Assembly: GCA_017652705.1 (NCBI GenBank)
Contig: JAGCAM010000079.1
Span: forward strand, 11,475-75,474
DNA length: 64,000 nt
Origin: Kiritimatiellia bacterium
GTDB taxonomy: Bacteria; Verrucomicrobiota; Kiritimatiellia; RFP12; UBA1067
Direction: 5' to 3'
Shown: positions 3,352-33,876 of the stretch, one piece after another
How the letters are laid out: each line of letters opens with the position of its first letter
Numbering within the stretch: the stretch's first letter is position 1
Notes under the pieces: model-generated
The model's database searches: none
Told to the model about the DNA's origin: nothing
Seen by the model: the letters and a program-made list of their open reading frames with translations, nothing else
Position numbers and translations under genes: made by a program

Positions 3352-3360
3352 CGCGGAACC

Positions 3361-4251: not shown

Positions 4252-4382
4252 TTTGCCGCTATAGTTGCATAGGAACGTCCCCGTGCACTTGTGGATCACC
4301 TCCGCCACGCAGATTCCAACACGGCGCGGCAAAAATTGTATTTGCGGAACGCGGCGGCCGCCACGGGCTGCCGTACGTCTTG

Positions 4383-4421
4383 TGCCACCCTTATCCCGGA
4401 TTTTCCGGGATAAGGGTGGCA
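4383..4421. repeat. Perfect inverted repeat forming a hairpin with 17-18-bp arms and a 3-nt loop. It lies about 58 bp downstream of the minus-strand glycosyltransferase gene. It may be a terminator or a protein-binding palindrome.
   Basis: The left arm GCCACCCTTATCCCGGA at 4384-4400 is the exact reverse complement of the right arm at 4404-4420, with a TTT loop. There is no flanking U-tract on either strand, so it is not a canonical intrinsic terminator. Confidence 0.55.
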
Positions 4422-4479
4422 TCGCCAGAAAGATTGCTTTTTGGCGTCGGAAAACAGTCGCAATGATTGCGGCAAGGGA

Positions 4480-16887: not shown

Positions 16888-17679
16888 TCAGTAGACGACC
16901 GTGCAACTGACGAGATCGTGGTCGCTCAAATCGCCGGCGGGCATGAAACGCGCGTCTTTAAAGTCCATGCCTTTAATCATGATGTTGTCCAGCGGAGATT
17001 TCGGATTGTTCGAGGGGTAAGTCGGCGTGGCGTCGCCGTTGACCAGTTTGTAGCCGGCTTTCATGAATACGTCGTATTCTTCCCAGAAGCCGATGTTGAA
17101 GTCGCCGGAGATTATCACCCGCGGCTCGTTGCGGAAATCGTCGATCAGTTTCTTCATCTGGAGTTTGCGGTCGTCTTCGTGGCCGGTCTTGAAGGTGGTC
17201 CAGTCAAGGTGCGTCTGCACCGCCCAGAACGGTTCGGCGCCGGACGGCTTGAGTTTAATCGCGAGGTAGTACACCCGCTGGTCGTGTTGCGGATACTCGA
17301 CGATTTTGGTCTCGGCGATTTCGAAACCGTTCAGGCAGAATGCGTTCCACTGATAATCATGGCCCGGCCCTTTGACGCATTTGCTGTAGCGGCCGAAAAC
17401 CGCCGCTTCGGACGAGATTCCGCCGCAGGTTGTGAACGCCTCGGAGAATTCGCAGACGCCGAGCACCTGCGCACCGACCTTGTCGAGGAAATCCCTGTAC
17501 GCCCGTCCGCGTTCGCCTGCCTGTTCCGGCGGAATGGTGGAGGCTCTGGATCGTCCCCATGCAAAATGGCCGATGTTCCAGCTCGCGTAGGTGAATTCAC
17601 CGGATTTCGGAACGCTCGAACAGCCAGCCGCCGCAAGGCACATGGCGGCGAAACCGATTTTGGCGAATGCAGGCTTCAT
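16888..17679 (-). CDS. Endonuclease/exonuclease/phosphatase (EEP) family lipoprotein.
   Basis: A signal peptide with a lipobox (AAAGCSS) is present. EEP motifs include ASWNIGHF, ISGDFN and SDHD. The ORF is 263 aa. Confidence 0.7.
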   Translation of the reverse strand: MKPAFAKIGFAAMCLAAAGCSSVPKSGEFTYASWNIGHFAWGRSRASTIPPEQAGERGRAYRDFLDKVGAQVLGVCEFSEAFTTCGGISSEAAVFGRYSKCVKGPGHDYQWNAFCLNGFEIAETKIVEYPQHDQRVYYLAIKLKPSGAEPFWAVQTHLDWTTFKTGHEDDRKLQMKKLIDDFRNEPRVIISGDFNIGFWEEYDVFMKAGYKLVNGDATPTYPSNNPKSPLDNIMIKGMDFKDARFMPAGDLSDHDLVSCTVVY

Positions 17680-18884
17680 TTCTTCACCTCCGCACGGGGC
17701 TCGGTCTCCAGCCAGGCGTCTCTGGACGGCAGAAACTCGTTGTTCTCCGCTATGACTTGCGACACTTTGCCGTCAAGCCCGAGAAAGCGTATCGGCTTGC
17801 CCGTGCGGTTGTCCATTTTGCAGTTGCGGACCGTAAGTCTGCGCACGGTCGCTTTGGGATCGACGCCGATCGTGTCCGCCGGCAACCGGGTTTCGTTGCG
17901 GTAAACGCGCTCCACGGTGAGATTGCCGATGTCGTTCGGCCCCTCCACCTCGATGATCGGCATCCTGCGCCGGTACCAGACGTCCATCGACGGCGGGCCG
18001 AACTCCTTGGAAGCGAACACGTCGGTAATCACGATGTCGTCCATGACTCCCCGTGGTTTCTGCGGAAAGTAATGGGTGAGCCCCACCGTGTAGCAGTAGA
18101 AGTTGCCGTGGACGTTTCTGATGGTCACGCGTTTAAGTTCGGCGCCGGCGGAGAGGAGACGCGCGGCGCTGTGGCAGTATTCGCAGTAAAGTCCGTCGAT
18201 GTCGACGTCGGTTATCGGGCCCTCTTCCGGCGAGCAGATGCCGTCGTTAGCGTTGAGCGCGACCATGTCGTCGAAACAGGTTCCACGCAGGTTGGTTATC
18301 CGGAAATGGTGGCAGAAGCCGTCGAGATGGACGCCGTCGAGGTTGAGCGGTATCGGATTCCATTTTTTATAGTCGAAGGTAACGTCGTCGACGGTGACGT
18401 ACGACGCCTTGGCGAATTCGATGCCGTACGTCACTGGATTGCGTATCGTCACGCCGCGCAGAGTCACATTCTCGACGTGGCAGAAACGCATACCGATGCC
18501 GATGAACCATTCGGGGTCGAATTTTTCCGGGATCTTCGCCCGCAACTCCGGCAGATGCATGAAGTTGCCGGTCTGACTGACGTTGTCGGCGTCCCAGATG
18601 CCGCCGGTGACGGCGACGAAACGGTTGGTGCCGCCGCCGCGGTAGCATTTGTTCTCGAGCATAGGGCAGTCCGAACCCGGCGCCAGGCGCACGACAGAGA
18701 AACGGTCGAGCCGCAATTCCGTGTTCGAACCGATGCGAAGGGTTTTGGAGATGCGGTAATGCGCGGCCGGCGGCGGCAGATACACGCACGCAGCCCCTGA
18801 ATCGAGACGTTCCTGTATCGCCGCGGTGTCATCCGCGATTCCGTCGCCGACTATCGCGGCGAGCGCCAACATCCACAATGTCAT
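17676..18884 (-). CDS. Secreted right-handed beta-helix protein of the pectate-lyase superfamily (GH28-like).
   Basis: The N-terminal motif GDGIADDTAAIQERLDSGA is typical of GH28 and related beta-helix proteins. Repetitive beta-strand segments follow. The signal peptide is short. Confidence 0.6.
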   Translation of the reverse strand: MTLWMLALAAIVGDGIADDTAAIQERLDSGAACVYLPPPAAHYRISKTLRIGSNTELRLDRFSVVRLAPGSDCPMLENKCYRGGGTNRFVAVTGGIWDADNVSQTGNFMHLPELRAKIPEKFDPEWFIGIGMRFCHVENVTLRGVTIRNPVTYGIEFAKASYVTVDDVTFDYKKWNPIPLNLDGVHLDGFCHHFRITNLRGTCFDDMVALNANDGICSPEEGPITDVDIDGLYCEYCHSAARLLSAGAELKRVTIRNVHGNFYCYTVGLTHYFPQKPRGVMDDIVITDVFASKEFGPPSMDVWYRRRMPIIEVEGPNDIGNLTVERVYRNETRLPADTIGVDPKATVRRLTVRNCKMDNRTGKPIRFLGLDGKVSQVIAENNEFLPSRDAWLETEPRAEVKK

Positions 18885-19130: not shown

Positions 19131-22100
19131 TCATCGGCCTGCGATTTTAATCGTGCCCGGCTTCAGACCGGGTGCGGTTACAGTCAGCTCAGGGGCGTCG
19201 CCGGTGCCCCGGTAGCGCCTCACCGCCACCACCGCTTTGCCGAACCACAGCGAGTGCCCTTTCAGACTCTTGAAAGACACCATCGACCGGGGATCGCCGT
19301 TGCCTACCGCCGCGATTTCACCCGGGCCTTTCAACAAGACGTCGAACTTCGCGTCCGAGACCGGCGAACGGTTGCCTTTCGAGTCCACCGCGTCAATCTG
19401 CACGAAAACCAGATCGGAGCCTTCCGCCGAATACGGATCGCGCGTGAGCCTGATCGCCTTCGGCGCACCTGCCGTTTTCATCTTCGCTTCGCCGATTTTC
19501 TCCCCGCCGCGGTACGCCACAGCTTTCAGCTCACCAGGCCTGTACGGCACGTCGAACCAACGCAGTCTGTACTTCGCGCACACTTCATAATACCTGTTGG
19601 TGAGCGCAGGGTTGCGTTCCACCACCCCCTTGCGGCGGCGGCCGAGCGATCTGCCGTTGAGAAAAAGTTCCGCCTCGTCGCCTGATGTGTAGACGTAGAC
19701 AGGCACTTTGGTCCCTTTATGATCATTCCAGTTCCAGTGCGGAAGAATGTGCACAGTCTCCGCCTTTTTGTTCCAGTGCGAGCGGTAGAGATGCCAGCGG
19801 TCTTTTGGAATGGCGCAGATGTCGGCGGCGCCGAAGTAGGAACTGCGCGAAGTGTCGGCGACGGTGAAGCTGCGGCCGGCCGCCTTGACATAGTGGCTGC
19901 CAAACTCGCTGGCGCCGAGGAACCAGAGTGTGTAGGGGGTGGGCTCGCCAATGTAGTCGATGCCCGACCAGACAAATTCGCCGCAAACGTAGCGGTCGCG
20001 TTCCATCCGGTCGAATTCGACGTCGGCGATGTCGCCCCAGGTCGCGGCGATCTGGTCGTAGCCGTCGACTTTCCAGTTTTTGACGTCGGCGCGGAACCAT
20101 TCTCCGTGCTCGGTGTTGTTGGTGTTGGACCACCCCTCGCGTTCTTCGTTGCCGGCGAACGGAACCCGGTAGAAGCCGTAGTCGGAGAACGCGCTCGCGG
20201 ATTCCGAATAGAACAGCGGCATCGCCGGGTTGCGCGCGTGCATGTGGCGGTAGCTGCCGCCGTAGTTCCAGCCGTTGAGGTCGAGTCCGTCGAGATCGCC
20301 TTTTTCGACGGCCTTTACGTAGCAGCAGCCAATGCCGACCGGACGGGTGGAGTCTTCGGAGAGAACCGCCTTGCGGAAACGGTCGCAGCGTTCGCGGGAG
20401 GTGCCCTGGGAATATTCCTCGCAGTTGAAATAGATTTCATTGCCGAGCGACCAGGTGAACACGCAGGGATGGTTGCGGTCGCGGCGGACGAACGCCTTAA
20501 GATTGCGCTCGACGTATTCTTCGAGATTCTCCCCGGGGAGCCGCCCGGCGGTGCCGTCCCATTTGTCGAAACATTCATCCCAGACTAGGATGCCAAGTTC
20601 GTCGCAGAGATCGAGCAACTGCGGGGCGGGGCAGTTGTGCGAGGTGCGTACGGCGTTCACGCCCATGTCGCGCATGCAGAGAAGCTGGCGCTTCGCGGCG
20701 TCGCGGTCGAACGCCATGCCGAGCGGCCCCAGATCGGAATGGAGGTTGACGCCGTGAATCTGCAGGCGGCGTCCGTTGAGAAACAGTCCGTTGGTGGTTA
20801 CGGAAACGGAGCGCACCCCGTAGCGGAACTTTTCACCGGCGACGGCGTATTCGTAGAGATAAGGGTCGTCCACGTCCCAGAGACGTGGTTTGAGAATTTT
20901 GAACGAGGCGGACTTTGGACCCGAAAGTGTGCGCCAGCTGACGTTGACGGTCGCCTCGGCGGCGGATATTTTCGGAGTGGTGATCGCCACCGAGCCGGGG
21001 ATGGCGTGACCGTCGCCGCGGGTCACGAGGCGAACGCTGCGGTAAATGCCGCCGCCGGGGTACCAGCGCGATTTGTGGTCGGTCGTGTCGGCGGAGACTT
21101 CAAGACTGTTTTCACCGTTGACGACAAGAGCGGACACATCGAGGATGAAGGATGCGTAGCCGTAATCCCACCCGCCGGCGTCTTTGCCGTTGACCTTGAC
21201 TTTCGGGCGGGCCATCACTCCGTCGAATTCAAGGTAGACCCGCTCGCCCGGCTTGCCGGACTTGCGCCAGACGAAGCTGCGTCGGTAGTCGCCTTTGCCG
21301 CACCACGACAGCTTGCCGGTGGCGTAGTCGTTGGTGTGGTTGAACGGCCCCGCTATCGCCCAATCATGGGGAACCCGCACCTTTGACCAAGCGGAGGAGC
21401 CGCCGCGGCGGAATTCCCAGGCGTCACCGTCGAGAGAGATGGATCGGAACGCCGAGTCGACGTTTTCCCTGGCGAAAGCGGAGAGGTCGGGTTCACCCCA
21501 CAGCGGAACGTAATTGCGGTCTCCGAGAGTTACCGCGAAGGAGGATATCTCCTCGAAACCGAGGAGGCGGTAGTATTCCACGTCGGCGGCGACGACGTCC
21601 TTCGCCTGGCGGAAAAGTTTCACGGGAGATGTCCAGTGGGAGTACAGGGAATTGTCGAACCAGTATTCGAGAACGCGAGAACCGGCGGAGCCGAACTTTT
21701 CAATCAGGGCTTTAAGGGGCTTGGTCTCGCCGTTGTTCTGGTCGGCGAGGGGACGGCCGAGATCGCGTTTGATGGGGGCGTATTCAAGGAACACGCCTTT
21801 GACCGGTTTCACTTTCTCCGGCGGGTTGATGGCGTCGGCGTAGGCAAGGTAGCAGAGTTCGGCGTCGGGTATGAACTTGCGCAATTCGGTCACGATGGCG
21901 TTGGCGAAAATCAGCTGCTGGTCGCTGGCGGAGAATCCGCGGCATTTTTCGCATTTGCACACGCCGCCGTGCACGTCGTCAAGCCACAGACAGTAGCGGC
22001 GGTTGCCGCCGTAGAGGGCCTTGGCGAGTTCGACCGCGCGTTTCCCCGCAATGTTCATGGCTTCGGGGTTGGAGAAGCAGAAGTTCTTGTCCCTGCAGCG

Positions 22101-24380
22101 GGCGCCCTTCTCGTCCATGCGGAAATATTCGGGGTGAACGTCGAAAAGGTTGCGCGGCAGCAGCCAGCTGGCGGCGTGGATTTCATAGCCGATGTCGATG
22201 CCGAGGGCTTTGGCGCGGTCGATGAGGGCGCGGTAGCCGGGCTCTTTCAGTCTGGCGAGTGTTTTATCGAGCGCGACTTCGGCCTGGCCGCCGCCGCCGG
22301 GATGGATGGAAAGATTGTGGAGACCGAGATTCACCGCGCGGTCCACCCAGCGGTCGGAGAGTTCGTCGGTGCCGATTACGAGGGATGTTTTAAGCGCCCC
22401 GGCCGGCGGAGCGGCCGGCTTTTTTTCACGGAACCAGACCTGCATGTCGTTGCCGGGCTGGCGGTGGTCCCACGCGAAGTACGGTATCAGTTTCAGCCCG
22501 TTGGAAGCTTTGAGCGCGGGGAAGGTCTTGTCGCCGATCACGATGGTGTCGTCGGTGAAAGTGGCGTCTTCGGGAAGAACGGCGTCGTAGGCCGCGCCGC
22601 CGTTGTCGCAGCCTTCGGCGCAGTAGAGCATGGGGCCGCGTTCGACGGCGAGACGGCCGAGGTCGTCGACGACGGCGCGGTGGGCGCGGATACGCTTGAC
22701 CGGCATGGGGAAATTGACTTCGACTTTGTCGCCGGCCTTCCATTTTCTGTCGATGTCGATGTAGCCGTCTTTGCCCGGTGCGGGGTCAAGAGCGGCGCCG
22801 TTCACCGAGAGAGTGATTTCCTTGACGCTTGCGGGCACGGTCTGGGTGTACAGGTCGCCGGGCACCGGTTCACCTTTCGCCCAGCCGGGAACGCGGAGTT
22901 TTAGCGTGAACCGCTTTTCGGCGGCCGGGCTGACGGCCAGCGTTGCGCGGCCGTTCCACGGATATCCCGTGTCGCATTTGAACTTGACCCCTTCCACCTC
23001 GGCTTCGCCCTGCATGACGAGGTTCCAGAATATGTTCGCGCCGTCGGTCGCCCACGCGAAGGACGGTATCTGGGGGATGAAGCGGACGTCATTCACCGGG
23101 CAGCAGCTGCAGCCGAACCACTTCGAACGTCTGTAACCTCCTTTGCAGGCGAGCGGGTTGGGGTAGAAGTACTCGTCGCCGGTGAGTGACACGCCGGAGA
23201 GGAATCCGTTGTAGATGACCCGCTCGAGTATATCGACGTATTTGGATTCGCCGGAAAAGCGGAACATACGTTCGTTCCACAGGGCGTTGGCGATCGCGGC
23301 GCAGGTTTCCAGATAGGTCACGCGGTAGTCGTTGGGCAGCAGATAGTCGCGCTCGAACGCCTCGCCGCGGGGGGTTCCGCCGACGCCGCCGGTGAGGTGC
23401 AGCTTGCGACCAGAAACGTTGAGCCAGATGGCGGAAATCGCGTCGAGGTACGCCTTGTCGCCGGTGAGGGCGGCGACGTCGGCGACACCGCAGTACAGGT
23501 AGCCGGCGCGCACAGCGTGGCCGACCGCCTCGCGCTGGAGGACGACGGGCATGTGATCCTGGATGCCCGCGCCCGGGGCGACGATGGGGTCGACCGGTTC
23601 ACCGCCGGGGCCGACCGGCCGCCCGTCTTCGAGAGACCTGCCGCGGCCGCGCATTTCAATGAAGTGGCGCGCGAGGTTGAGATAACGCTTCCTGCCGGTC
23701 ACCCGGTAGAGCTTGGCGAGGGCGAGCTCGATTTCCTCATGGCCGGGCGCGTCTTTGAGCTGGGTCGGGTCGGGCCCGAACACGCGGCAGAAAAGATCGG
23801 CGGATTTTACGGCGACGTCGAGGAAATTGCGCTTGCCGGTGGCCCGGAACCACGCGCAGGCGGCTTCGATCATGTGCCCGTTGTTGTAAAGTTCGTGGCT
23901 GGAGCCGATGTTGGACCAGCGAACGGGGCCCATCATGCCGCTGCTGCCGCCGCCTTTGCTGAAGTGCCAGTGGCCGAGCGTTCTGGCGGTGTAGAGGTAG
24001 CCGTCTAATTCCTGCGCTTTGGCGAACTGACCGATAAGCCAGTCGCAGTATTTTTCAAGTTCGGGGTCGGGGTGGTTGGCGAGCACGTAGGCCGCCCCTT
24101 CCACCACCTTGAACACGTCGGAATCGTCGAAGGGAATTCCGCCGAACTTGCCGGCGCGGGCGGCGGCGTTGGTGAAGTTGGCGATGCGCGGCGTCTCGTT
24201 GCATTTGTCGAAACAGTTTTTGAGGGTGGAAAGACGGTTCGTCTCCAGCCGGTCGTACCAGAAGCCGCCGGTGACTCTGACCTTGGTCATGTCGGCGGAG
24301 CGGATCGGGTAGTCGTTGGCGGCGGCGGCCGCAGCGGCGGCAACGAACGCTGCGACGGCGACAGAGAGTTTCTTTTTCAT
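19131..24380 (-). CDS. Giant secreted three-module glycosidase: GH127/DUF1680-like beta-L-arabinofuranosidase-like module, then DUF4838-like module, then GH2 module.
   Basis: The 1749-aa ORF carries a signal peptide. The N-terminal roughly 650 aa contain the consecutive-Cys motif FGCSCCPVND characteristic of GH127. The middle contains GGVCKCEKCRGF and flanking DUF4838-like sequence. The C-terminal roughly 700 aa show the GH2 sugar-binding domain (VPHDWAIAGPFN, YLEFDGV), a TIM barrel (NAVRTSH, WSLGNE) and a C-terminal beta domain. Confidence 0.75.
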   Translation of the reverse strand: MKKKLSVAVAAFVAAAAAAAANDYPIRSADMTKVRVTGGFWYDRLETNRLSTLKNCFDKCNETPRIANFTNAAARAGKFGGIPFDDSDVFKVVEGAAYVLANHPDPELEKYCDWLIGQFAKAQELDGYLYTARTLGHWHFSKGGGSSGMMGPVRWSNIGSSHELYNNGHMIEAACAWFRATGKRNFLDVAVKSADLFCRVFGPDPTQLKDAPGHEEIELALAKLYRVTGRKRYLNLARHFIEMRGRGRSLEDGRPVGPGGEPVDPIVAPGAGIQDHMPVVLQREAVGHAVRAGYLYCGVADVAALTGDKAYLDAISAIWLNVSGRKLHLTGGVGGTPRGEAFERDYLLPNDYRVTYLETCAAIANALWNERMFRFSGESKYVDILERVIYNGFLSGVSLTGDEYFYPNPLACKGGYRRSKWFGCSCCPVNDVRFIPQIPSFAWATDGANIFWNLVMQGEAEVEGVKFKCDTGYPWNGRATLAVSPAAEKRFTLKLRVPGWAKGEPVPGDLYTQTVPASVKEITLSVNGAALDPAPGKDGYIDIDRKWKAGDKVEVNFPMPVKRIRAHRAVVDDLGRLAVERGPMLYCAEGCDNGGAAYDAVLPEDATFTDDTIVIGDKTFPALKASNGLKLIPYFAWDHRQPGNDMQVWFREKKPAAPPAGALKTSLVIGTDELSDRWVDRAVNLGLHNLSIHPGGGGQAEVALDKTLARLKEPGYRALIDRAKALGIDIGYEIHAASWLLPRNLFDVHPEYFRMDEKGARCRDKNFCFSNPEAMNIAGKRAVELAKALYGGNRRYCLWLDDVHGGVCKCEKCRGFSASDQQLIFANAIVTELRKFIPDAELCYLAYADAINPPEKVKPVKGVFLEYAPIKRDLGRPLADQNNGETKPLKALIEKFGSAGSRVLEYWFDNSLYSHWTSPVKLFRQAKDVVAADVEYYRLLGFEEISSFAVTLGDRNYVPLWGEPDLSAFARENVDSAFRSISLDGDAWEFRRGGSSAWSKVRVPHDWAIAGPFNHTNDYATGKLSWCGKGDYRRSFVWRKSGKPGERVYLEFDGVMARPKVKVNGKDAGGWDYGYASFILDVSALVVNGENSLEVSADTTDHKSRWYPGGGIYRSVRLVTRGDGHAIPGSVAITTPKISAAEATVNVSWRTLSGPKSASFKILKPRLWDVDDPYLYEYAVAGEKFRYGVRSVSVTTNGLFLNGRRLQIHGVNLHSDLGPLGMAFDRDAAKRQLLCMRDMGVNAVRTSHNCPAPQLLDLCDELGILVWDECFDKWDGTAGRLPGENLEEYVERNLKAFVRRDRNHPCVFTWSLGNEIYFNCEEYSQGTSRERCDRFRKAVLSEDSTRPVGIGCCYVKAVEKGDLDGLDLNGWNYGGSYRHMHARNPAMPLFYSESASAFSDYGFYRVPFAGNEEREGWSNTNNTEHGEWFRADVKNWKVDGYDQIAATWGDIADVEFDRMERDRYVCGEFVWSGIDYIGEPTPYTLWFLGASEFGSHYVKAAGRSFTVADTSRSSYFGAADICAIPKDRWHLYRSHWNKKAETVHILPHWNWNDHKGTKVPVYVYTSGDEAELFLNGRSLGRRRKGVVERNPALTNRYYEVCAKYRLRWFDVPYRPGELKAVAYRGGEKIGEAKMKTAGAPKAIRLTRDPYSAEGSDLVFVQIDAVDSKGNRSPVSDAKFDVLLKGPGEIAAVGNGDPRSMVSFKSLKGHSLWFGKAVVAVRRYRGTGDAPELTVTAPGLKPGTIKIAGR

Positions 24381-24410
24381 TTCAGCGGTCTCCTTTTAAG
24401 GGTGAAGCTT

Positions 24411-24902
24411 TCACAGATGTTTGATGTTGATTTTGCCTGTGGCGAGTCCCGGGGCCGATGCCGTCAGGGTGGCGGGGCCTTTGCCGGTGCGCCGAAGGAT
24501 TACCAGGGCCTTGCCGTGGAAAAGACGGTTGCCGGCGACGTCCTTGACCGAGTCGTAATCGCGTGGGTCGCCGTTGCCTACCGCTTCTATGACGGCGTCG
24601 CCGCGGACCGCGAAACCGACTCGGTCGCCGGCGTCGGGAACGCGCGTACCGGCTGCGTCCGCTTTCGCGGCGGTTTTCACGCTGGCCACGCCGATCTTCC
24701 TGCCCCTGAGATAGCGGACCGCCCTGAGTTCGCCCGGTTCCCACCGCACGTCAAACCAGCGCAAACGGTAGCGGCCCATAATCTTGTAATACGGGTTGTC
24801 GCGGCCTTTCCCGTTGAACTTGGCGACGTCGCCGCAGTCGCTGTGCAGCGGATAGTCGAGGCGGAGCTTCCGTTTCATTGGCCTTATTTTGTTTTGTCGC
24901 AC
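24411..24902 (-). pseudogene. 3' remnant of a GH2 gene (C-terminal beta-sandwich domain only).
   Basis: RYRLRWFDVRWEPGELRAVRY...AVGNGDPRDYDSVKDVAGNRLFHGKALVILRRTGKGPATLTASAPGL aligns with the last roughly 150 aa of the GH2 module of the giant protein at 19131..24380. The upstream GH2 domains are absent. Confidence 0.5.
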
Positions 24903-24912: not shown

Positions 24913-27669
24913 TCATTGCTCGACGAATTTCAGTACGCCGAAGGCGTTGAGATCGCTGTTGAAATTGCCGAACCTGTTGTAAAGCCGCGAAAGTTCCCAC
25001 ACCGAACCGGGGGTGCGCTTCGACTTGTCTTTGAGCCAGGCGTCGGCGATTCTCAGCCGCGCGATGTTGCCGTTCCAGTGGATGCCGCCCTGCGTGGTCG
25101 GTATTTTCGCGTCGGCGAAGAAACCGAGGTCGCTGTACGGTATGTAGATTTCGACCGACCAGGAGTCTTTGTTGATTTTCGCCCCGCTCTTCAGCCCCTT
25201 CGGTTCCCACTTCTTGGTCTGAACCCGCAACTGGTTGACGGCGTCGATCCAGAGTTTGAAATAGACGCCTTCAAGCTCGCCGGTGGGGTCGACGAAAATT
25301 TCAAGACAGTCGTTGCCCCACCAGTCGCCGGCCGGGTGCGAAGTCTGCAGGCGGTCGGGGGTCTTCTCCATGCAGGTGATGCCGAACACCACGCCTTGCG
25401 AAGTCCATACCGCCTGCACGTAAGTCGGATATTTCGCCACGGTGTTGGTGCGGCTGCCGCTGCCGTCGATACCCGCGAGCGCGCAGGAGAGCGGCTCGGC
25501 GAGCTTCCAGCACGGGTCGGAGAGGTCGCCGTCGATTTTCGGAAGTTCGGCGGCCTTGCGCATGTGCAGGTCGGGGAAGGCCTTGTTGTTGGCGTACTCC
25601 CAGCTTTCCCTGAAAAACCGCTCGAAGGGTTTGGCGTAGTAGGCGAGACGGTTCGAGGCGGCCGCATCGTCGGCGAGAGCCCTGAACGACTCTTTGATTA
25701 TGCGTTCCATCTCCTCCACCTCGGCGCGCGGGTAGCTGATGCCGAAAACGTTTTTGCTGGTGACGCTCGGCCGCTTCCACTGCCGTGCCCACCCTTTCTC
25801 CTGCATGTCGATAAGTTTGCGCATCGGCGCGGCGGCCTTGCCGAACATCCGACTGGCGAATTCGTCGTAGACGTCTTTCGCCTCGAAGCCGGGGTTCCAC
25901 ATCGCCCGCACCCAGACGTAGGCGGAGAGCCCGAGCCGGTCGACCGGATACCCCCCGTTCAGGAAAGATCCGCAGATCACGCCCTTCATCCTGCGGTAGA
26001 ATTCAACAGCGGTGCCGCCGAAAACGTAAGGGGCGCAAGTCCGGTCGGCCGGCCAGCAGATGTAGTGCCAGTTCTGCACGGGGTTGCCGGTCGCCTTCGC
26101 CCATTGGCGCATGAGCTCCTCCTCGTGTCTGCGGGCTGATTCCTGGGCGAGCAGCGCGAGGCCCGGCATGGTGCACAGAAACGCGTCCACGTTGCCTTCG
26201 GCCGTGAGATCGAGACCTTTGGGCACGTCGCAGGTGTTGATGTAGGGAAGTATGGAAATGCGCCAGTCGGGATATTTCCGCTTCATCCATTTGGCGAGTT
26301 CCTTGGTGAAATACCCCCAGATTATCGGCGAAGCGTCGCCCGTGGGCGCGGCTGACTTGTCCACGAGTTTTTTGCAGAAATCGCAGTGGCAGACGACGGC
26401 GGCGTCGTACTGCGAAACGGTTACGGTTTTGCGCTGCACGTCGACGGGGTCGCCCATAAAGCCGCGGCGTTTGCCCTCGACCGTCAGGTTGATGTGCTCC
26501 TTGTAGGTCTGCAGCGTGCGGGGGTTGCCGTAACAGAGCATGGCGGTGCGGGCGCGTTCGCCGTTTTCGGACAGGGCGAAGATTTCCGGTCGCCCCGTCC
26601 AGCGGCTCGGCTTGTAACCGAGATTGGGGTCGACGTGCCAGTAGCTCGGGGTGTGGACCCGGTGCGATGACTGGTGGGCGTCGCCGAATTTCCAGCCGCG
26701 GTGACCCGCTGCGAATTCGGTGCGGAATTCATAGACCGGTTTGTCCGACCAGTTGAACCGTGGCAGGGCGAGACCTTCCGTTTTGATAACGAGTTCGCCG
26801 ATCTTGCGGTCGGGGTAGTACTGGCGTACGCCGAGTATCCGTTCGGCGAAGTCGTAGACGGCGTAGCCGGAGGCGGTCGCATGCGCGCCGATGAGGAAAA
26901 CGTCCCCTCCTTTGGTGAGACAGCGGAAGGCGTGTGCGCCGACGCCCCACCGGGTGTCGGGGGTGCCGGGGCGGGTGACGCCGGCTTCGCGGGCGGCGAG
27001 GGTGTCGCCGATGTAGATCGCGCCGCCGCCGGTGTAGGCGGTGTTGGTGCCGAGATGGAGAACCGGCGGCTTGGCGCCGGTCATCTTTTCGATTATTTCA
27101 GCGAGCCACACCGCTTCGCCGCGCGCTTCGGCCGCCACGATCGGCATGCGGGCGACGCCGTCGGCGACGACCACGACCGGTTCCCCGCGAGGGGCCGAGA
27201 ACGCGGTGAGCGGGGTCAGGTCTTTGGCGCGCGGATTGCCGGGCGCGAGCTGCGCTCTGGATCCGTCCTCCGCGGTGACGAAACTCCCTTTCCGTTCCGC
27301 GGCGGCGGCCGAAGTCTTGGTGAAGTAGTTGGTGGCGAGCGCGGTACGCGACGTCCGGCGGTACGCCTCGAAGAGAACTGAATACTCACCGGCCGGCAGA
27401 TCTTCGACATGCAGCGAAAGCGCATTGCGCCCGACCCGCAAGGGAACCGACTGCGTGCGGAGCATCCTGCCGGACGCGTCGCGCAGCGTCATTTTCACGC
27501 TGTCGGCGGTGCAGACCGGAACCTTTGCCTCGAAGGCGACGTAGACGTCGTCCTTGCCGAGCGTCTGCCGGTCGCCCGAGGCGCCGGTAAATCCGACGGC
27601 CGGCGCCGCGGCGGCGGCGGCGGAAAGGATTGCCGCGGCGGCGAAAAGAACCTGTGCTGTCTTTGTCAT
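24913..27669 (-). CDS. Secreted DUF4838-like protein with a C-terminal CBM9-like (DOMON-type) carbohydrate-binding domain.
   Basis: A signal peptide is present. VVCHCDFCKK and the flanking region are paralogous to the 7992, 19131 and 30401 proteins. The C-terminal motif PKIDGDLSDPCWKLAEP...YFKL is CBM9-like. Confidence 0.6.
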   Translation of the reverse strand: MTKTAQVLFAAAAILSAAAAAAPAVGFTGASGDRQTLGKDDVYVAFEAKVPVCTADSVKMTLRDASGRMLRTQSVPLRVGRNALSLHVEDLPAGEYSVLFEAYRRTSRTALATNYFTKTSAAAAERKGSFVTAEDGSRAQLAPGNPRAKDLTPLTAFSAPRGEPVVVVADGVARMPIVAAEARGEAVWLAEIIEKMTGAKPPVLHLGTNTAYTGGGAIYIGDTLAAREAGVTRPGTPDTRWGVGAHAFRCLTKGGDVFLIGAHATASGYAVYDFAERILGVRQYYPDRKIGELVIKTEGLALPRFNWSDKPVYEFRTEFAAGHRGWKFGDAHQSSHRVHTPSYWHVDPNLGYKPSRWTGRPEIFALSENGERARTAMLCYGNPRTLQTYKEHINLTVEGKRRGFMGDPVDVQRKTVTVSQYDAAVVCHCDFCKKLVDKSAAPTGDASPIIWGYFTKELAKWMKRKYPDWRISILPYINTCDVPKGLDLTAEGNVDAFLCTMPGLALLAQESARRHEEELMRQWAKATGNPVQNWHYICWPADRTCAPYVFGGTAVEFYRRMKGVICGSFLNGGYPVDRLGLSAYVWVRAMWNPGFEAKDVYDEFASRMFGKAAAPMRKLIDMQEKGWARQWKRPSVTSKNVFGISYPRAEVEEMERIIKESFRALADDAAASNRLAYYAKPFERFFRESWEYANNKAFPDLHMRKAAELPKIDGDLSDPCWKLAEPLSCALAGIDGSGSRTNTVAKYPTYVQAVWTSQGVVFGITCMEKTPDRLQTSHPAGDWWGNDCLEIFVDPTGELEGVYFKLWIDAVNQLRVQTKKWEPKGLKSGAKINKDSWSVEIYIPYSDLGFFADAKIPTTQGGIHWNGNIARLRIADAWLKDKSKRTPGSVWELSRLYNRFGNFNSDLNAFGVLKFVEQ

Positions 27670-27683: not shown

Positions 27684-29771
27684 TCAGAACTTCACGGAAG
27701 TCGAGAGCGTATCGACGAAACCGGGCTGTCCGCCGCCGACGTAAACCGCGGTTTCACCCGAGGGCACCGTCGCTTTGCCGTCTTCGCCGAAAACCGCGAA
27801 CTGCTCGTTCAGCAGCGTGAAGGTGACGTTCCGCGACGCACCGGGGGCGATGCGAACGCGCGTGAACCCCTCAAGATGGTGCAGACGGCGGTCGCCGGCC
27901 GCGGCGGGGGCTTTCAGATAGAGCTGCACGACTTCGTCGCCGGCGAGCTTGCCGGTGTTTTTCACGTTGACGGTGATCTCTGCGCCGGACGCCGTCTTTT
28001 TGGCCCGGATGTCGGAGTAGGCGAAAGTCGTATAGGAAAGTCCGTAACCGAACGGATACGCCGGCTTTTTCGTGGCGTAGCGGTAGGTGCGCCCGACGAG
28101 GGTGTAGTCGGCGAACGCGGGAAGGTCGTCGTAGGATTTCGGGTAGGTGATGGGGAGCCTCCCGGCCGGGTTGTTTTTGCCGAATATCGTGCGGGCGACT
28201 GCGCGCCCCCCCTGTTCACCGGGATACCATGCGAGAATGACCGCGTCGGAATTTCTGACGACCGGCTCGAGATCGAACGGGCTGCCGCCGAAGATGACCG
28301 AGACTACGCACTTGCAGCTCTTGCGGTAGCCCTCAAGCAGTTTCAACTGGTTCTGGGGCAGCGAATAGGAGGTGCGGTCGCCGCCGGAATTGTTGACGCT
28401 GCACCCCTCCTCGCCTTCGTCTTCGGCGGTGATGCCGAGACAGACTATCGCGATGTCGCTGCCGTGGGCGCCTTCGGGCACGCCGATTACGCGAACCCCC
28501 GGGCCTGCCTCTTCGACCACCCCGGAGAAGACTGTTGACGGACGCGCAGCGTAGCCGCAGTAGTTGCCGATAAGAGCCACTTCGTCCATCGCGCGCGGAC
28601 CGACCACGCCCACGCAGACGGCTTTCTTGGGGTCGAACGGCAGTGCGCCGTTGTTGGAAATCAGCACGAGAGATTTCTCGGCGGCCTCAAGCGCGAGATC
28701 GCGGTTGGCCTCGGTCGCGACGTCCTTTTCGCCGAGGTGATCCCACGGCGTGGAACCGTTTCTGTCGAACTGGCCGAGCAGAACGCGGGTGTTGAGAAGC
28801 TGCACCAGCGGTCGCTTGAGCTCGTCGCCGGTGACCTTGCCCTCTTTAATGGCGTCGCGGAGGCAGGCGTAGGTGCCTTCCGAACAAAGGTCGAGACCGG
28901 CCGCGATCGCCGCTTTGCACGCCGCCACCCTGTCGGCGGTGAAATGATGTCCGGTGTGGATGTCGGCGACCGCGCCGACATCGCTGACGATATGGCCTTT
29001 GAAGCCCCATTCGCCGCGGAGGATGTCCGTGAGCAGTTCGCGGTTGGCGCAGCACGGCACGCCGTTGAGGGCGCTGTAGGCGCCCATGAACGCCTCGACT
29101 TTCGCGTGCATCGCCAACGTGCGGAACGCCGGCAGATAGTATTCGCGGAGATCCCGCGCCGAAACCTTGGCGTTGAACCCGTGGCGCAGACGCTCGGGCC
29201 CCGAATGCACCGCGAAGTGTTTGGCGCACGCCGCGGTTTTCAGATACTTTTTGTCGTACCCCTGCAGCCCGCGGACGTACGCTCCGCCCATTACGCCGGA
29301 GAGGTAGGGGTCTTCGCCGAACGTCTCCTGGCCGCGCCCCCAGCGCGGATCGCGGAACATGTTGACGTTGGGGCTCCACAGGGTAAGCCCTTTGTAGATT
29401 TCACGCTGGTCGCGTTCGCGGAAGAGGTTGTACTTGGCGCGCGTCTCGGTCGAGACGACGTCGCCGACGCGCTCCTGCAAGCCGGAGTCGAACGAGGCGG
29501 CCATGCCCATCGACTGCGGGAACACCGTGGCGAGACCGGCGCGGGCGATGCCGTGCAGCGCCTCGTTCCACCAGTGGTAGCGGGGAATCCCGAGCCTGTC
29601 GACGGCGGGGGAGTCCATCATCAGCAGATCGACGCGTTCCTCTGGGGAGAGTTGCTCGACCATCGTCCGCGCGCGCAGCTCGCATTCGGAACGGCGGTAG
29701 TCGGAAGGTATGGCTGCGGCGGATGCCGCGGCGAACGCGGCGATGGAACCAGCGGCTATTTTCATGTTCAT
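27684..29771 (-). CDS. Glycoside hydrolase family 3 (beta-glucosidase/beta-xylosidase, BglX-like), secreted.
   Basis: The 695-aa ORF has a signal peptide. GH3 N-domain motifs include WNEALHG and KHFAVHSGPE. The catalytic region reads GFKGHIVSDVGAV. A C-terminal alpha/beta domain and FnIII-like domain follow. Confidence 0.9.
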   Translation of the reverse strand: MNMKIAAGSIAAFAAASAAAIPSDYRRSECELRARTMVEQLSPEERVDLLMMDSPAVDRLGIPRYHWWNEALHGIARAGLATVFPQSMGMAASFDSGLQERVGDVVSTETRAKYNLFRERDQREIYKGLTLWSPNVNMFRDPRWGRGQETFGEDPYLSGVMGGAYVRGLQGYDKKYLKTAACAKHFAVHSGPERLRHGFNAKVSARDLREYYLPAFRTLAMHAKVEAFMGAYSALNGVPCCANRELLTDILRGEWGFKGHIVSDVGAVADIHTGHHFTADRVAACKAAIAAGLDLCSEGTYACLRDAIKEGKVTGDELKRPLVQLLNTRVLLGQFDRNGSTPWDHLGEKDVATEANRDLALEAAEKSLVLISNNGALPFDPKKAVCVGVVGPRAMDEVALIGNYCGYAARPSTVFSGVVEEAGPGVRVIGVPEGAHGSDIAIVCLGITAEDEGEEGCSVNNSGGDRTSYSLPQNQLKLLEGYRKSCKCVVSVIFGGSPFDLEPVVRNSDAVILAWYPGEQGGRAVARTIFGKNNPAGRLPITYPKSYDDLPAFADYTLVGRTYRYATKKPAYPFGYGLSYTTFAYSDIRAKKTASGAEITVNVKNTGKLAGDEVVQLYLKAPAAAGDRRLHHLEGFTRVRIAPGASRNVTFTLLNEQFAVFGEDGKATVPSGETAVYVGGGQPGFVDTLSTSVKF

Positions 29772-30400: not shown

Positions 30401-33400
30401 TCAGTTCTCGCGGAAGATGAACTTTGAAAAAGCTCCCGGATCGCTGTTGTAGCCGTTGCCGCGCGTATGCAGGCGGGACATCTCGGTGGTGTGCGGGGTT
30501 CGCTTGTTGAGCGGACGGATCGTCTTGTCGCCGCGGCGGAGGCGGATGAAGTTCCCCGTCCAGGACATGCCCCCTGAAGTCGTCGGGTGCACCGCGTCTT
30601 TGTAGAGCGCGATCATCGGCTTGTACGGCACGTAAAGTTCGATGCTCCACGACTTCTCGTTCTTCGCGATCGCGCAGCGGACGCCTTCCGGCCCCTGGGC
30701 CTTCTTGAAGCCGTCGTACCACTCGAACTTGCCGCTCGCGTTGATAATCACGCGGCCGAAAGCGCCGTAGTCGCCGCCGAGGTCGATCAGCGCTTCGACG
30801 CAGTCGTTGACCCAGTAGTTGCCGGTGGGGCCGTCGTTGCAGAGGTTCGCCATGTCGCTTTCGCGGCAGTCCATGCCGAACGTGACTGCGGTCGGCGTCC
30901 ACACCGCGCGTATCGACGTGCCCTCTTTCGGCGTCGTGCCCTCCTTGCGCGCGCCGGTGAACTCCTGCGCTTCGGCCAGCTTCCAGCAAGCGTCGTCGAG
31001 CTTGCCGTCGATCACGGGGTCCTGCGACACTTTCTGCATCATGAGCGGCGCAAAGGCGCTGCCGGCGGCGTATTCGGCCGATTCCTTGAAAAACTGCGTG
31101 AAGCCGCCTTTGTAGTAGGCGATGCGCTTCATGAGCAGCTCGTCGCCGGCGCAGAGCTGCTCTGCCTCGGCGAAGAGCCCCTCCATCCTCAGAACTTCCG
31201 CCCGCGGATAGGAAATCGTGTAGATGTTCCGGTTGTTGACGCGGGAGACCTTCCACTGCCGCTCCCAGCCTGTCTCCTGCAGGCGGACGATCTCGCGCAG
31301 CTGTTTCGCCGCGGGCCCGAACATGCGGTCGGCGAAGGTGTCGTAGACGGAGTCGATGTTCAGCTCGGGGTTCCACAGCAGGCGCATCCAGCAGTAGGCC
31401 GAAAGCACCAGCCGGTCTACCGGGTAACGACCGTTGAGAAAGCTGCCCGCTGTGATTTCGCGCGTGTCGCGGTAGTGGCGCTGGGCCGTCTTGGCGAAGA
31501 TAAACGGCGCCTGGCAGGTCTCCGCCGGCCAGCAGATGTAGTGCCAGTTCTGCACCGGCCGACCCGTCACCCGCGCCCAGTCGCGGATGAGTTGCTCCTG
31601 GAACTCCTTCACCGGCTTCTCCTTCAGCATGGCGAGACCGGGCATCGTGCAGAGAAACGCCTCGACGTTGCCCTCTTCGACGAAGTCCACCCCGTCGGGT
31701 ATGTCGGTCGTGTTGTGGTACGGCAGAATGACTATTTTCCAGCCGGGCAGTTCCTTCTTCGCCCACTTGGCGAGTTCTTTCGTGAAGTAGCCCCAGAGCA
31801 CGTTCGAAAAGCTCACGCGGCTTTCGGCGATGTTCTCCTGCGGGTGTCTGGCGAGTATCGCCTTGCAGTATTTGCAGTTGCAGAAAACGGCGATGTCCCA
31901 CTGCGAAACGGTGATGCACTTCGCCAGCGGTGCGGTGATGTCGCCGCGTGGCGAACCGCTGGCGATTTCGGCGAGGATGCGCTCCTTGTACGTTTCGAGG
32001 GTGCGGGGGTTGCCGTAGCAGAGCAGCGGCATCGTCGCCCGTTTGCCGTCGTCGGTCAGCGCGAAGATTTCCGGCCGCGTGAACATGAAGTTGAGGTTGG
32101 TGTTCCTGTTCCACGCCCCGGGCGCATGCACGTGGTGCTCTCCGCAGTGGCTGTCGCCGTTTTTCCACACCCGGCACCATTCGTTGCCTTCGTACGGCCA
32201 GAGGTCGCGCTTGGCGAAAACCGGCTTGTCGGAGTAACTGAACGCCGGCAGCGAAAGCCCGTATGTTTTCACCACAGTGCGGCCGCCGTTCTTGACGTCC
32301 CAGTATTCGCGCACGGCGAGGGCGCGCTCCGCGAAGTCGGTCGCCGCGTAATCGCACCGCGCGCCGCAAAGGTAGACCGACCCGTCTTTCACGCACACCT
32401 TGAACCCGTGCGCGTCGACGCCCCAGCGCTCGCGCTGGTAGGTGGCGAGCCCCGCGCGGCGCGTCGCCGCTACATCGCCTATGTAGATCGCCGGGGCGTT
32501 GGTGACCGGTCTGCCGCCGCACTCGCGCACGATCCTGAGCCTGGCGCCGGTCATGTCCTCGATCACCGAGGCGATGAACTGCGCGGCGAACTGCCCGTCA
32601 CGCGAATCTTCGCAGACGATGTCCATCGCCGGTATCGAGCCGAGAGCGACGGTCGCGCCGGCGCCGCCCAGCCAGCGGAAATCTTTCACCGGCGTCAGAT
32701 CGCGCGCGTTCACGTTCATCGGGGCGCGCTGCGCATGATAAACCCTGCGGCGGACGTCGTCGACGCGCACCACCGCCCCGCCGCGCTTGCCCGATTCCTC
32801 CGCGGCGGCCATGAGCGCGAAGATCTCGTCGGTTTCCTCGGAAGGGAAAGGCTTCACCCCGGTTTTGAAAAACTTGAGTATCTCCTCGAGCATCGGCGCG
32901 TAACCCTCGTATCCCCCGAGATCGACCACCCCCTTGTCGGCGGTGAACGCCTGGCCGGAGTAATTCCACATCCCGGGCCCGCGCATCATGCGCAGACCGC
33001 CGAATCTGCCGTCGCGCCATCTGACGGCCACGAAATCGTTGCTTTCGTTCGAAAAGCAGCTGACCGATTCGGCACCGACCCCCATCACCGCCACGAGCGG
33101 CTCGAAACCGTGGATGCCGTACCAGGTGAACCGCGAGTGGGTGCGCTCAAGCGGCGAGGGAGCAGCGTAGTTGACGCCGCGCACCACGCCCAGCTCCCCT
33201 TTGCGCGCCGCCTGCACCTTCGAAGTCCACCGCAGCGCGGAACAGCTGAAGAAATTGGCGTTGACCCGGCGCGCCTCGTCGAATATCCGGGTGGCGGACT
33301 GGTAGTCGCTGGCGAGGGGCTTGTCGATGAACACCCGCTTGCCGCTCGCGAAAACCTCCCGCGCCTGGGCCAGATGCTCGCGGCCGTCCTGCGTTTCAAG

Positions 33401-33721
33401 CAGCACCACGTCGCACTTCGCCAGCACGTCTTTGACGCTCGGCTCCATTTCAACGCCCATCTCCTTCATCTGCCCGATGTATTTCGGGTAGTTGTTCGTC
33501 ACCGCGGGTATCGTGCGCGAGCCGTACTTGTACGCGGCCACGACCCGGAAATCTTTGAATATCTCGCGGTCGCGCTTGACGTTGATGTGCCTGGTGAACT
33601 CGGTGGCGTGCGACGTGTCGACGCCGATGACGCCGATCTTGATTTCGCCGGCCGTCGGGGCGGCCGCGGCCGCCGCCGCCGCGAGAAGTGCGATTGAGCG
33701 AAGTGGTCTGTCCATTTTCAT
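30401..33721 (-). CDS. Fusion protein: Gfo/Idh/MocA oxidoreductase, then DUF4838-like domain, then CBM9-like domain. It has a Sec-type signal peptide.
   Basis: After the signal peptide (MKMDRPLRSIALLAAAAAAAAPTAG) comes a Rossmann Gfo/Idh/MocA domain (IKIGVIGVDTSHATEF...). The middle section contains AVFCNCKYCKAILARHPQ and WGYFTKELAKWAKKELPGW, which are nearly identical to the 24913 protein. The C-terminal PVIDGKLDDACWKLAE motif is CBM9-like. The ORF track's start at 33757 adds 12 residues. Confidence 0.7.
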   Translation of the reverse strand: MKMDRPLRSIALLAAAAAAAAPTAGEIKIGVIGVDTSHATEFTRHINVKRDREIFKDFRVVAAYKYGSRTIPAVTNNYPKYIGQMKEMGVEMEPSVKDVLAKCDVVLLETQDGREHLAQAREVFASGKRVFIDKPLASDYQSATRIFDEARRVNANFFSCSALRWTSKVQAARKGELGVVRGVNYAAPSPLERTHSRFTWYGIHGFEPLVAVMGVGAESVSCFSNESNDFVAVRWRDGRFGGLRMMRGPGMWNYSGQAFTADKGVVDLGGYEGYAPMLEEILKFFKTGVKPFPSEETDEIFALMAAAEESGKRGGAVVRVDDVRRRVYHAQRAPMNVNARDLTPVKDFRWLGGAGATVALGSIPAMDIVCEDSRDGQFAAQFIASVIEDMTGARLRIVRECGGRPVTNAPAIYIGDVAATRRAGLATYQRERWGVDAHGFKVCVKDGSVYLCGARCDYAATDFAERALAVREYWDVKNGGRTVVKTYGLSLPAFSYSDKPVFAKRDLWPYEGNEWCRVWKNGDSHCGEHHVHAPGAWNRNTNLNFMFTRPEIFALTDDGKRATMPLLCYGNPRTLETYKERILAEIASGSPRGDITAPLAKCITVSQWDIAVFCNCKYCKAILARHPQENIAESRVSFSNVLWGYFTKELAKWAKKELPGWKIVILPYHNTTDIPDGVDFVEEGNVEAFLCTMPGLAMLKEKPVKEFQEQLIRDWARVTGRPVQNWHYICWPAETCQAPFIFAKTAQRHYRDTREITAGSFLNGRYPVDRLVLSAYCWMRLLWNPELNIDSVYDTFADRMFGPAAKQLREIVRLQETGWERQWKVSRVNNRNIYTISYPRAEVLRMEGLFAEAEQLCAGDELLMKRIAYYKGGFTQFFKESAEYAAGSAFAPLMMQKVSQDPVIDGKLDDACWKLAEAQEFTGARKEGTTPKEGTSIRAVWTPTAVTFGMDCRESDMANLCNDGPTGNYWVNDCVEALIDLGGDYGAFGRVIINASGKFEWYDGFKKAQGPEGVRCAIAKNEKSWSIELYVPYKPMIALYKDAVHPTTSGGMSWTGNFIRLRRGDKTIRPLNKRTPHTTEMSRLHTRGNGYNSDPGAFSKFIFREN

Positions 33722-33876
33722 GACTCCGGTTAGTGGTTGTGGCTGTTCGATTCTCAAAGTCCAGAGCTGCAGACTCTGCCGTTCTGAAAGATATTTGTCG
33801 CGGAAACCGCGGGTGTGAAGCCAGCCTTCGGCGATGTTGGGCTTTTCAACATACCGCTCTCATCGCCGCACCGCCG

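Follow-up and report, generated by a model that had tools for sequence, protein, structure and literature searches.

A GH127, DUF4838-type and GalB-like GH2 tri-modular fusion protein, putatively Sec-exported, from a Kiritimatiellia bacterium

Introduction

Does one long open reading frame (ORF) of a Kiritimatiellia bacterium encode a single exported enzyme with three different glycosidase heads, or have neighbouring genes been joined by error, and which glycan might such a protein serve if the fusion is genuine? The question is raised by the ORF at 19131..24380 on the minus strand of a 64-kb stretch of contig JAGCAM010000079.1 (NCBI GenBank assembly GCA_017652705.1, positions 11,475 to 75,474), the whole of which is hereafter called the window; all coordinates refer to it. 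An earlier reading of the sequence alone (the original prediction) had described the product as a secreted protein combining glycoside hydrolase family 127 (GH127)-like, DUF4838-like and GH2 modules. We consider it probable, at roughly 0.7, that this protein is a genuine tri-modular glycosidase fusion with active end modules, and that it is lineage-specific, Sec-exported and derived from a ruminant-gut member of the Kiritimatiellia. The activity of each of the three heads is a prediction from sequence, and the assignment to the ruminant gut follows the sample names, which suggest a ruminant gastrointestinal metagenome.

Reading frame and modular architecture

The region 19131..24380 (minus strand) holds one ATG-started ORF of 1749 amino acids (aa) plus a stop codon, the latter located by translation at 19131..19133 (minus strand), with 0 internal stops. 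A Shine-Dalgarno sequence, AGGAG, was read from the sequence at 24390..24394 (minus strand), and the ATG at 24380 follows after 9 nucleotides (nt). The start codon and a putative Sec signal peptide (aa 1-22, MKKKLSVAVAAFVAAAAAAAAN), judged by eye from the translation, occupy 24315..24380 (minus strand). This peptide has a KKK n-region and an Ala/Val-rich h-region and contains no Cys, so the fusion protein is not expected to be a lipoprotein; it is presumably secreted. Three complete modules follow, namely a GH127 module (aa 23-651), a PF16126/DUF4838 barrel (aa 663-973) and a GH2 module (aa 974-1749). The single 1749-aa ORF with these modules, as originally proposed, is borne out by Pfam, NCBIfam and PDB alignments, and the three motifs on which that proposal leaned were all found in place (FGCSCCP, aa 422-428; VPHDW, aa 1003-1007; WSLGNE, aa 1310-1315). 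The protein had already been deposited from a Kiritimatiellia metagenome-assembled genome (MAG) as NCBI MBO7721726.1 (P0001), under the automatic name 'DUF4838 domain-containing protein', and forms a singleton sequence cluster.

The N-terminal GH127 module

The GH127 module (22428..24314, minus strand), delimited by Pfam and by alignment to 6EX6, comprises an (alpha/alpha)6 catalytic domain followed by a middle and a C-terminal beta-sandwich domain. The catalytic domain PF07944 was matched at aa 33-439 (E=1.7e-98, 330.5 bits), the middle domain PF20736 at aa 451-559 (E=1.4e-20, 73.6 bits) and the C-terminal domain PF20737 at aa 561-651 (E=1.4e-20, 73.2 bits); all three scores lie far above the Pfam cut-offs, and the arrangement is the domain layout that CAZy describes for GH127. 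In a PDB search, residues 4-623 of the stand-alone 648-aa chain 6EX6, the nearest solved structure, were aligned with the module (E=3e-164, 551.6 bits), followed at lower scores by HypBA1 (3WKW, 329 bits) and 5MQO (256 bits). The alignment was also full-length to 4QJY and 3WKW, and 5MQO scored lowest among the GH127 structures aligned over their whole length. We take 6EX6 to be BT3674 of Bacteroides thetaiotaomicron.

In the 3WKW/3WRE alignment, Glu340, Glu358, Cys360, Cys426 and Cys427 correspond to E322, E338, C340, C417 and C418 of HypBA1, in which E322 serves as acid/base and E338, C340, C417 and C418 as zinc ligands, C417 being also the nucleophile. The predicted catalytic and zinc-site residues are intact by this alignment, including the Cys nucleophile and Glu acid/base that characterise GH127. 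For the aceric acid hydrolase family of NCBIfam (NF049879, BT1003 type), the module scored 376.8 bits, short of the equivalog cut-off of 950.

The C-terminal GH2 module

Pfam, NCBIfam and PDB alignment concur that aa 974-1749 (19134..21461, minus strand) form a GalB-like, five-domain GH2 beta-galactosidase module without a signal peptide of its own. Pfam places the GH2 N domain (PF02837) at aa 998-1120, the TIM barrel (PF02836) at aa 1192-1348 (E=1.9e-25), DUF4982 at aa 1556-1629 and GH2_C5 at aa 1646-1745, while the Ig-like domain (PF00703) gave a weak match. Among solved structures the top relatives are 5T98, entered in the PDB as 'Glycoside Hydrolase', and 9BEY, entered as 'GH2 beta-galactosidase'; the alignment with 5T98 runs over its residues 52-814 (E=1e-132). 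In this alignment WSLGNE (E1315) and YSESAS (E1393) coincide with WSIGNE and GSETSS of 5T98, which makes Glu1315 the probable acid/base and Glu1393 the probable nucleophile. The features by which CAZy recognises GH2 are present, namely the N domain, the Ig-like domain, the TIM barrel and the motifs of the N-E acid/base and the nucleophile Glu, and hidden Markov models, which had been proposed as the check on both terminal modules, back GH127 and GH2 strongly.

GalB (NF041463) is the best-scoring NCBIfam family at 623.5 bits, below its equivalog cut-off of 900. The family of BT0996-type beta-D-glucuronidase/beta-L-arabinofuranosidases (NF049877) scored 75.2 bits against a cut-off of 1800, with only the GH2 barrel matched. 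The GH2 module starts at the point where homologues continue beyond their signal peptides (aa 974 is aligned with residue 21 of P0244), which indicates that it is complete.

The compact middle module

The DUF4838-type module between the two, which we regard as the most interesting part of the fusion protein, is a compact PF16126/DUF4838-type (beta/alpha)8 barrel of about 310 aa (aa 663-973; 21462..22394, minus strand). Its DUF4838 match covers aa 727-895 and profile positions 55-224 of 325 only (E=1.2e-14, 54.7 bits against a gathering cut-off of 26.6). Its predicted model (pLDDT, the predicted local distance difference test score, 96.2) has a GH20/GH84/GH42-like fold, with GH20 and GH84 as the top fold matches. 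Comparisons with all PDB chains, by sequence and by a 118-sequence profile, returned nothing significant, and comparison with NCBIfam returned no match.

The module spans the full length of stand-alone proteins of about 307 aa, whose Met lies 2-3 residues before SLVIG(TDEL) and whose C-termini fall right after GEPDLSAF. At least 280 copies of this compact subfamily occur across GTDB species representatives, and the 80 copies inspected come mostly from ruminant and gut Clostridia MAGs, the stand-alone gene having no signal peptide. The closest homologues, P0124, P0125 and P0128, carry signal peptides of their own. The C-terminal extension of homologues of about 510 aa gave no Pfam match when scanned for carbohydrate-binding modules.

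Several residues are invariant in the family. They include a four-cysteine (Cys4) cluster formed by C768, after strand 3, and C808-x-C810-x-x-C813; W799-x-D801-D802, which ends strand 4 directly before the C-x-C-x-x-C motif; E866 (in EYAP); E905-Y-W-x-D909 after strand 7; and H735. Four PF16126/DUF4838 barrels, all on the minus strand, are encoded in the window (7992-9929, 21462-22394, 24913-27669 and 30401-33757), and the Cys plus C-x-C-x-x-C pattern, which resembles the structural zinc cluster of GH42, is invariant in all of them. The protein encoded at 7992-9929 (645 aa) belongs with the compact W-x-D-D type, whereas the two large canonical paralogues (918 aa and 1118 aa) carry S-Q-x-D in place of the W-x-D-D of the middle module.

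Strand 4 bears the catalytic pair in related barrels, Asp-Asp in GH84, Asp-Glu in GH20 and Asn-Glu in GH42. Since an Asp-Asp closing strand 4 is what GH84 enzymes have, the preferred reading of the middle module is that of a retaining, possibly substrate-assisted glycosidase, and it is probably an exo-acting one. The Cys4 cluster probably binds zinc, by analogy with GH42, in which the structural zinc cluster follows the pattern C113...N147-E148...C153-x-C155-x-x-C158, parallel both in its cysteines and in their spacing to the strand-4 acidic pair to C768...D801-D802...C808-x-C810-x-x-C813 (PMC8573354). Membership of GH42 itself was considered and rejected, given that there is no PF02449 match, that the pair is D-D and not N-E, and that no GH42 protein appeared in the PDB profile search; the likeness goes no further than the pattern of four cysteines and the overall fold of the barrel.

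The fused copy retains all invariants and 76 of the 82 strongly conserved positions. The six exceptions are H670G, P671T, F798L, K918S, C950V and D956N, several of which sit on the catalytic face of the barrel, immediately behind strands 1 and 8, H670G and P671T being those that follow strand 1. Such changes may mean altered specificity or loss of activity, and in the latter case the module would be a rigid spacer or carbohydrate-binding scaffold within a bifunctional beta-L-arabinofuranosidase and beta-galactosidase. The lost His-Pro after strand 1, together with C950V, D956N and K918S, fits this alternative, all of these positions being kept by the closest stand-alone relatives, as does the standing of the compact subfamily, which has no characterised activity and no PDB or NCBIfam match. 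However, His-Pro is also missing in some stand-alone members, such as P0141; the strict invariants (the Cys4 cluster, W799, D802, H735, Y906, D909 and others) are kept; and conservation along the full length of a 310-aa barrel exceeds what a spacer needs. On balance we judge a purely structural role improbable and prefer to read the middle module as a glycosidase head.

Evidence that the fusion is genuine

The most direct challenge to a tri-modular protein is that the long ORF might result from a sequencing or assembly error joining two or three adjacent genes, or from a chimeric contig. The protein is, after all, a singleton from a short-read metagenome bin, and a GH2 relic directly upstream (described below) marks a rearranged region. 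The junctions speak differently. Linker 1 (aa 652-662, REKKPAAPPAG; 22395..22427, minus strand), delimited by alignments to 6EX6 and to stand-alone DUF4838 proteins, is an 11-residue, Pro/Ala-rich stretch with no Met and no hydrophobic, signal-like segment, and junction 2, of about 0-9 residues, is a nearly direct join. On inspection of the sequence, neither junction contained a stop, a start codon or Met, a ribosome site, a signal-peptide remnant or an intergenic relic, traces that adjacent genes for secreted enzymes would leave. Furthermore, all modules are complete, whereas a chimeric join would truncate them, and the GC content at third codon positions (GC3) is even throughout the ORF, at 0.72-0.87 in every 75-codon block, both junctions included.

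The protein recurs without any amino-acid change in three assemblies, on the 101-kb contig of the NCBI MAG, on a 54.5-kb ENA scaffold and on a 7-kb Logan contig, and this recurrence excludes an assembler artefact. Each assembly departs from the window at a single base, which indicates that the three represent one population; that every assembly with the fusion stems from a single population is also what an artefact might lead one to expect. Because the modules match stand-alone homologues end to end, the junctions are clean, GC3 is uniform and three assemblies agree, read-through of neighbouring genes, the outcome named at the outset as fatal to the fusion, is very unlikely, and we regard an artefact of any of these kinds as exceedingly improbable.

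Rarity of the architecture

A search with the full protein against 5.8 billion 90% clusters retrieved no second GH127-DUF4838-GH2 protein. Nor was a second such architecture found with a junction-spanning 450-aa query, or by phmmer with aa 500-1400 against 1.84 billion 50% representatives, the protein's own entry being missing as a self-hit from both lists, which may therefore be incomplete; that entry (P0001) was recovered by the full-length query only and not by sub-fragment queries. In the same database searches, the middle module was not found joined to GH127 or GH2 in any other protein, and a literature search identified no paper describing the architecture. The claim of an undescribed architecture thus stands insofar as neither a second protein nor a paper was found, and must be qualified insofar as the protein itself is already in the databases.

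The accompanying statement that GH127 and GH2 are normally separate enzymes proved too strong. Of the 120 best GH127 relatives, almost every one contains additional enzyme domains (GH51, GH95, GH43, GH32, GH29, sulfatase or GH2), and GH2-GH127 fusions of two GH2 subtypes, ordered GH2 then GH127, are present in databases (P0023, P0025, P0051, P0032 and P0065). The nearest relatives of the GH2 module, at 57-58% identity, are likewise fusions, of the types AXE1-GH2 (P0241), GH31-GH2-GH43 (P0243, 1907 aa with three catalytic modules), GH28-GH2 (P0262), pseudopilin-GH2 and GH2-SASA. No experimental description of these GH2-GH127 or other GH2-clade fusions was found in the literature searched. The exact domain combination is new, while combinatorial multi-catalytic carbohydrate-active enzymes are common among uncultured polysaccharide degraders, and a specialist is little surprised by a fusion of this kind.

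Genomic context and origin of the fusion

The fusion gene lies in a same-strand run consisting of a GFO/IDH/MocA gene, a GFO/IDH/MocA-DUF4838 fusion, a 209-aa ORF, a GH3 gene, a DUF4838 gene (918 aa), a 155-aa ORF, the tri-modular fusion, a GH28-like beta-helix gene and, at its end, Exo_endo_phos, a protein of the endonuclease/exonuclease/phosphatase family. The 155-aa ORF (24411..24878, minus strand; PF18565), 30 nt upstream of the fusion, is what remains of the C-terminal part of a further GalB-like GH2 protein. It retains the end of DUF4982 together with the C5 domain, lacks a signal peptide, has lost 25 aa internally and is 41% identical to about aa 1595-1746 of the fusion (E=2e-29). Most probably it is a fragment of a pseudogene that a rearrangement left behind, and its position marks an old rearrangement at the 5' boundary of the fusion gene.

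Upstream of this relic lie the 918-aa canonical DUF4838 protein (24913..27669, minus strand; Pfam E=9.5e-24) and a GH3 exo-glycosidase (27684..29771, minus strand), identified by Pfam and nearest in NCBIfam to the beta-xylosidase Xyl3A (694 bits, below the cut-off of 1250). Downstream of the fusion, a 402-aa beta-helix protein (17676..18884, minus strand) has weak GH28-like and pectate-lyase-like Pfam matches (E=1.6e-5 and 1.5e-4). A promoter scan found a near-consensus sigma-70-like promoter at 19119-19090 (minus strand; TTGACA, 18-nt spacer, TG-TATCAT, 11/12), between the fusion stop codon and the beta-helix gene, and judging from this site the latter may be transcribed separately from the fusion. 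Homology between the beta-helix of another fusion protein, P0139, and this downstream gene was considered and rejected, the similarity not being significant.

A related contig, L089 (ENA ERZ27247096 k141_476949, 57% GC), carries at 666-6151, in this order, an orthologue of the 918-aa DUF4838 protein (69% identity), a GH30 gene and a stand-alone middle-module gene (61% identity). This synteny indicates that the middle module was ancestrally a separate gene of the locus and that the fusion is derived and lineage-specific. Further downstream, L089 encodes a fusion of SASA and 3-keto-disaccharide hydrolase domains. Stand-alone homologues have mixed surroundings: one is followed immediately by a GH29 gene, two have GFO/IDH/MocA genes in the vicinity, and others lie among housekeeping genes. 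In two contigs from gut Clostridia (L002, 8001-10278; L003, 6956-9233), a DUF4838 gene of about 308 aa is followed after 40 nt by a gene for a GH29 alpha-L-fucosidase; judged from their spacing, the pair could be a two-gene operon and a hint to the substrates of the subfamily.

Proposed function and substrate

The model that best fits the assembled evidence is a Sec-exported polypeptide whose three independent exo-glycosidase heads would work on adjacent non-reducing ends within a single branched glycan. Head 1, a 6EX6-type GH127 retaining beta-L-arabinofuranosidase, would take off beta-L-arabinofuranose (beta-L-Araf) with Cys426 as nucleophile and Glu340 as acid/base, the zinc being held by Glu358, Cys360, Cys426 and Cys427. 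Head 2, the PF16126 barrel, would take off a third residue, and head 3, the GalB-like GH2 beta-galactosidase, would take off beta-galactose (beta-Gal) by means of Glu1315 and Glu1393. Tethering would co-localise the heads at a fixed 1:1:1 stoichiometry and allow stepwise trimming at one place.

Our best guess for the substrate is an arabinogalactan-protein or a pectic side chain with beta-L-Araf caps and beta-Gal, and any specific substrate can be named only tentatively. The guess follows from the 6EX6-like GH127 head and from neighbours of plant-cell-wall type (the GH3 protein near beta-xylosidase and the GH28-like protein). The original prediction of one substrate needing three sequential activities, with an arabinogalactan-protein or extensin-type glycan as candidate, is plausible by analogy, because the GH127 module is nearest to 6EX6 and a BT3674-type GH127 is active on larch arabinogalactan (PMC10850190).

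Alternatively, the target could be N-acetylhexosamine (HexNAc)-containing glycans, such as host or microbial N-/O-glycans or chains of the N-acetyllactosamine (LacNAc) type. Here the GH2 head would release beta-Gal, after which the beta-N-acetylglucosamine (beta-GlcNAc) beneath it would fall to the PF16126 head by substrate-assisted catalysis, and the GH127 head would act on another capping sugar. The sole characterised PF16126 enzymes are indeed beta-GlcNAc-ases, the GH163 protein BT1035, an endo-beta-GlcNAc-ase on complex N-glycans, and the GH185 protein Sp_0475, a 6-sulfo-beta-GlcNAc-ase with active-site residues Q174, H227, D309, Y436 and R633 (PMC10570127). The GH84-like Asp-Asp after strand 4, the lead of GH20 and GH84 among fold matches of the middle-module model, the three further PF16126 proteins and several GFO/IDH/MocA proteins at the locus, and the GH29 fucosidase adjoining a stand-alone homologue point the same way. 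However, outside the Pfam core the middle module shares no detectable sequence signature with GH163/GH185 enzymes, which are twice as large, the GH127 head is nearest to 6EX6, and the GH3 and GH28-like neighbours are typical of plant-wall degradation. In addition, every characterised GH127 enzyme targets either plant beta-L-Araf or aceric acid (PMC10850190). A HexNAc-containing target is therefore unlikely in our view, though worth keeping in mind, and a plant arabinogalactan or pectic side chain is preferred.

Several observations weigh against the model of a three-headed enzyme for plant glycans. Both the GH127 and the GH2 module score below the NCBIfam equivalog cut-offs, so that no exact specificity can be assigned to either. 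The middle module carries the six substitutions at conserved positions noted above, and the beta-GlcNAc released by its characterised relatives (PMC10570127) is not a sugar of arabinogalactan. A single strain carries the fusion, and the three assemblies are not independent evolutionary evidence. Lastly, 86 stand-alone middle-module loci were searched by tblastn, the queries being both end modules and the proteins adjacent to the fusion in the window, and GH127 or GH2 occurred within 10 kb in 0 of the 86; given this lack of conserved linkage, the present fusion is the sole basis for coupling the three heads functionally.

With these points in view, the fusion may be regarded as a further example of uncultured PVC-group gut bacteria shuffling complete glycosidase modules into multi-headed enzymes, and as a candidate enzyme that could debranch complex plant glycans as a single protein. 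It also gives a first, still weak, functional hint for the widespread DUF4838 subfamily of about 307 aa, which has no characterised member. One could speculate that this compact subfamily represents a new glycoside hydrolase family or specificity, with a Cys4-zinc site and an Asp-Asp pair, for which the fusion would be a Rosetta-stone clue to a third sugar released from arabinogalactan- or pectin-type side chains. A defined construct and residues are on offer for this purpose (D801, D802, E905 and the cysteine cluster C768/C808/C810/C813).

Other features of the window

Further up the same-strand run, 30401-33757 (minus strand; called gene 30401-33715, 1104 aa) encodes the fusion of a GFO/IDH/MocA NAD-binding domain with a canonical DUF4838 barrel, whose DUF4838 part is about 39% identical to the 918-aa paralogue; to judge from its domains, this protein could couple sugar oxidation to glycoside cleavage. 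The GFO/IDH/MocA gene next to it (33877-35232) has the BT_2158-type glycoside 3-dehydrogenase as its best NCBIfam match, far below the cut-off. Parts typical of oxidative glycoside-cleavage chemistry are also encoded at 2395-3351, 41186-42700, 43876-44868, 59814-61373 and 61433-62482 (all minus strand), comprising more GFO/IDH/MocA oxidoreductases, two PF06439 3-keto-disaccharide hydrolases and a xylose-isomerase-like TIM barrel. Two giant adjacent ORFs, at 46361-51379 (minus strand, 1672 aa) and 51420-55709 (minus strand, 1429 aa), have almost no Pfam signal, the former showing a weak CBM9-like match at its N-terminus only. Long opposite-strand ORFs overlap them, and even the coding strand is less than certain.

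Comparison with known systems

Each end module of the fusion has well-defined stand-alone counterparts. HypBA1 of Bifidobacterium longum (3WKW) and 6EX6 share with the GH127 module the three-domain layout, the acid/base Glu, the zinc-binding Glu/Cys3 set and the Cys nucleophile. However, these proteins stand alone at about 650 aa, whereas the module described here forms the N-terminal third of a 1749-aa protein. GalB-like GH2 enzymes (NF041463; 5T98, 9BEY) similarly have the five domains, including DUF4982 and C5, and the catalytic motifs in common with the C-terminal module, which differs from them in having no signal peptide of its own and in being placed behind two other modules.

The middle module shares its Pfam family with GH163 and GH185, neither of which is represented by a solved structure. 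PF16126 constitutes the catalytic barrel of both CAZy families, is distantly GH20-like and uses substrate-assisted catalysis, and a GH20/GH84-like (beta/alpha)8 fold has also been reported for Sp_0475 (PMC10570127). Unlike Sp_0475, whose numbering runs to at least residue 633, the middle module is a minimal barrel of about 307 aa, and the differences in size and in the strand-4 motif suggest that it belongs to a subfamily separate from GH163/GH185.

As for the architecture as a whole, database precedents include P0051 (1536 aa, from a Planctomycetes MAG) and P0032 (1875 aa, LacZ-type), which also combine several complete catalytic modules, including GH2 and GH127. In the GH2-GH127 fusions of the databases, however, the module order is reversed, the GH2 modules are of other subfamilies and there is no PF16126 module, which is also missing from the AXE1-GH2, GH31-GH2-GH43 and GH28-GH2 proteins. 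BT0996 of B. thetaiotaomicron, which we take to be a characterised enzyme that dismantles rhamnogalacturonan II, likewise unites a beta-L-arabinofuranosidase and a GH2 enzyme on one polypeptide. It differs from the present fusion in having two modules, a GH2 beta-glucuronidase and a GH137 beta-L-arabinofuranosidase (NF049877), with GH137 rather than GH127 supplying the arabinofuranosidase.

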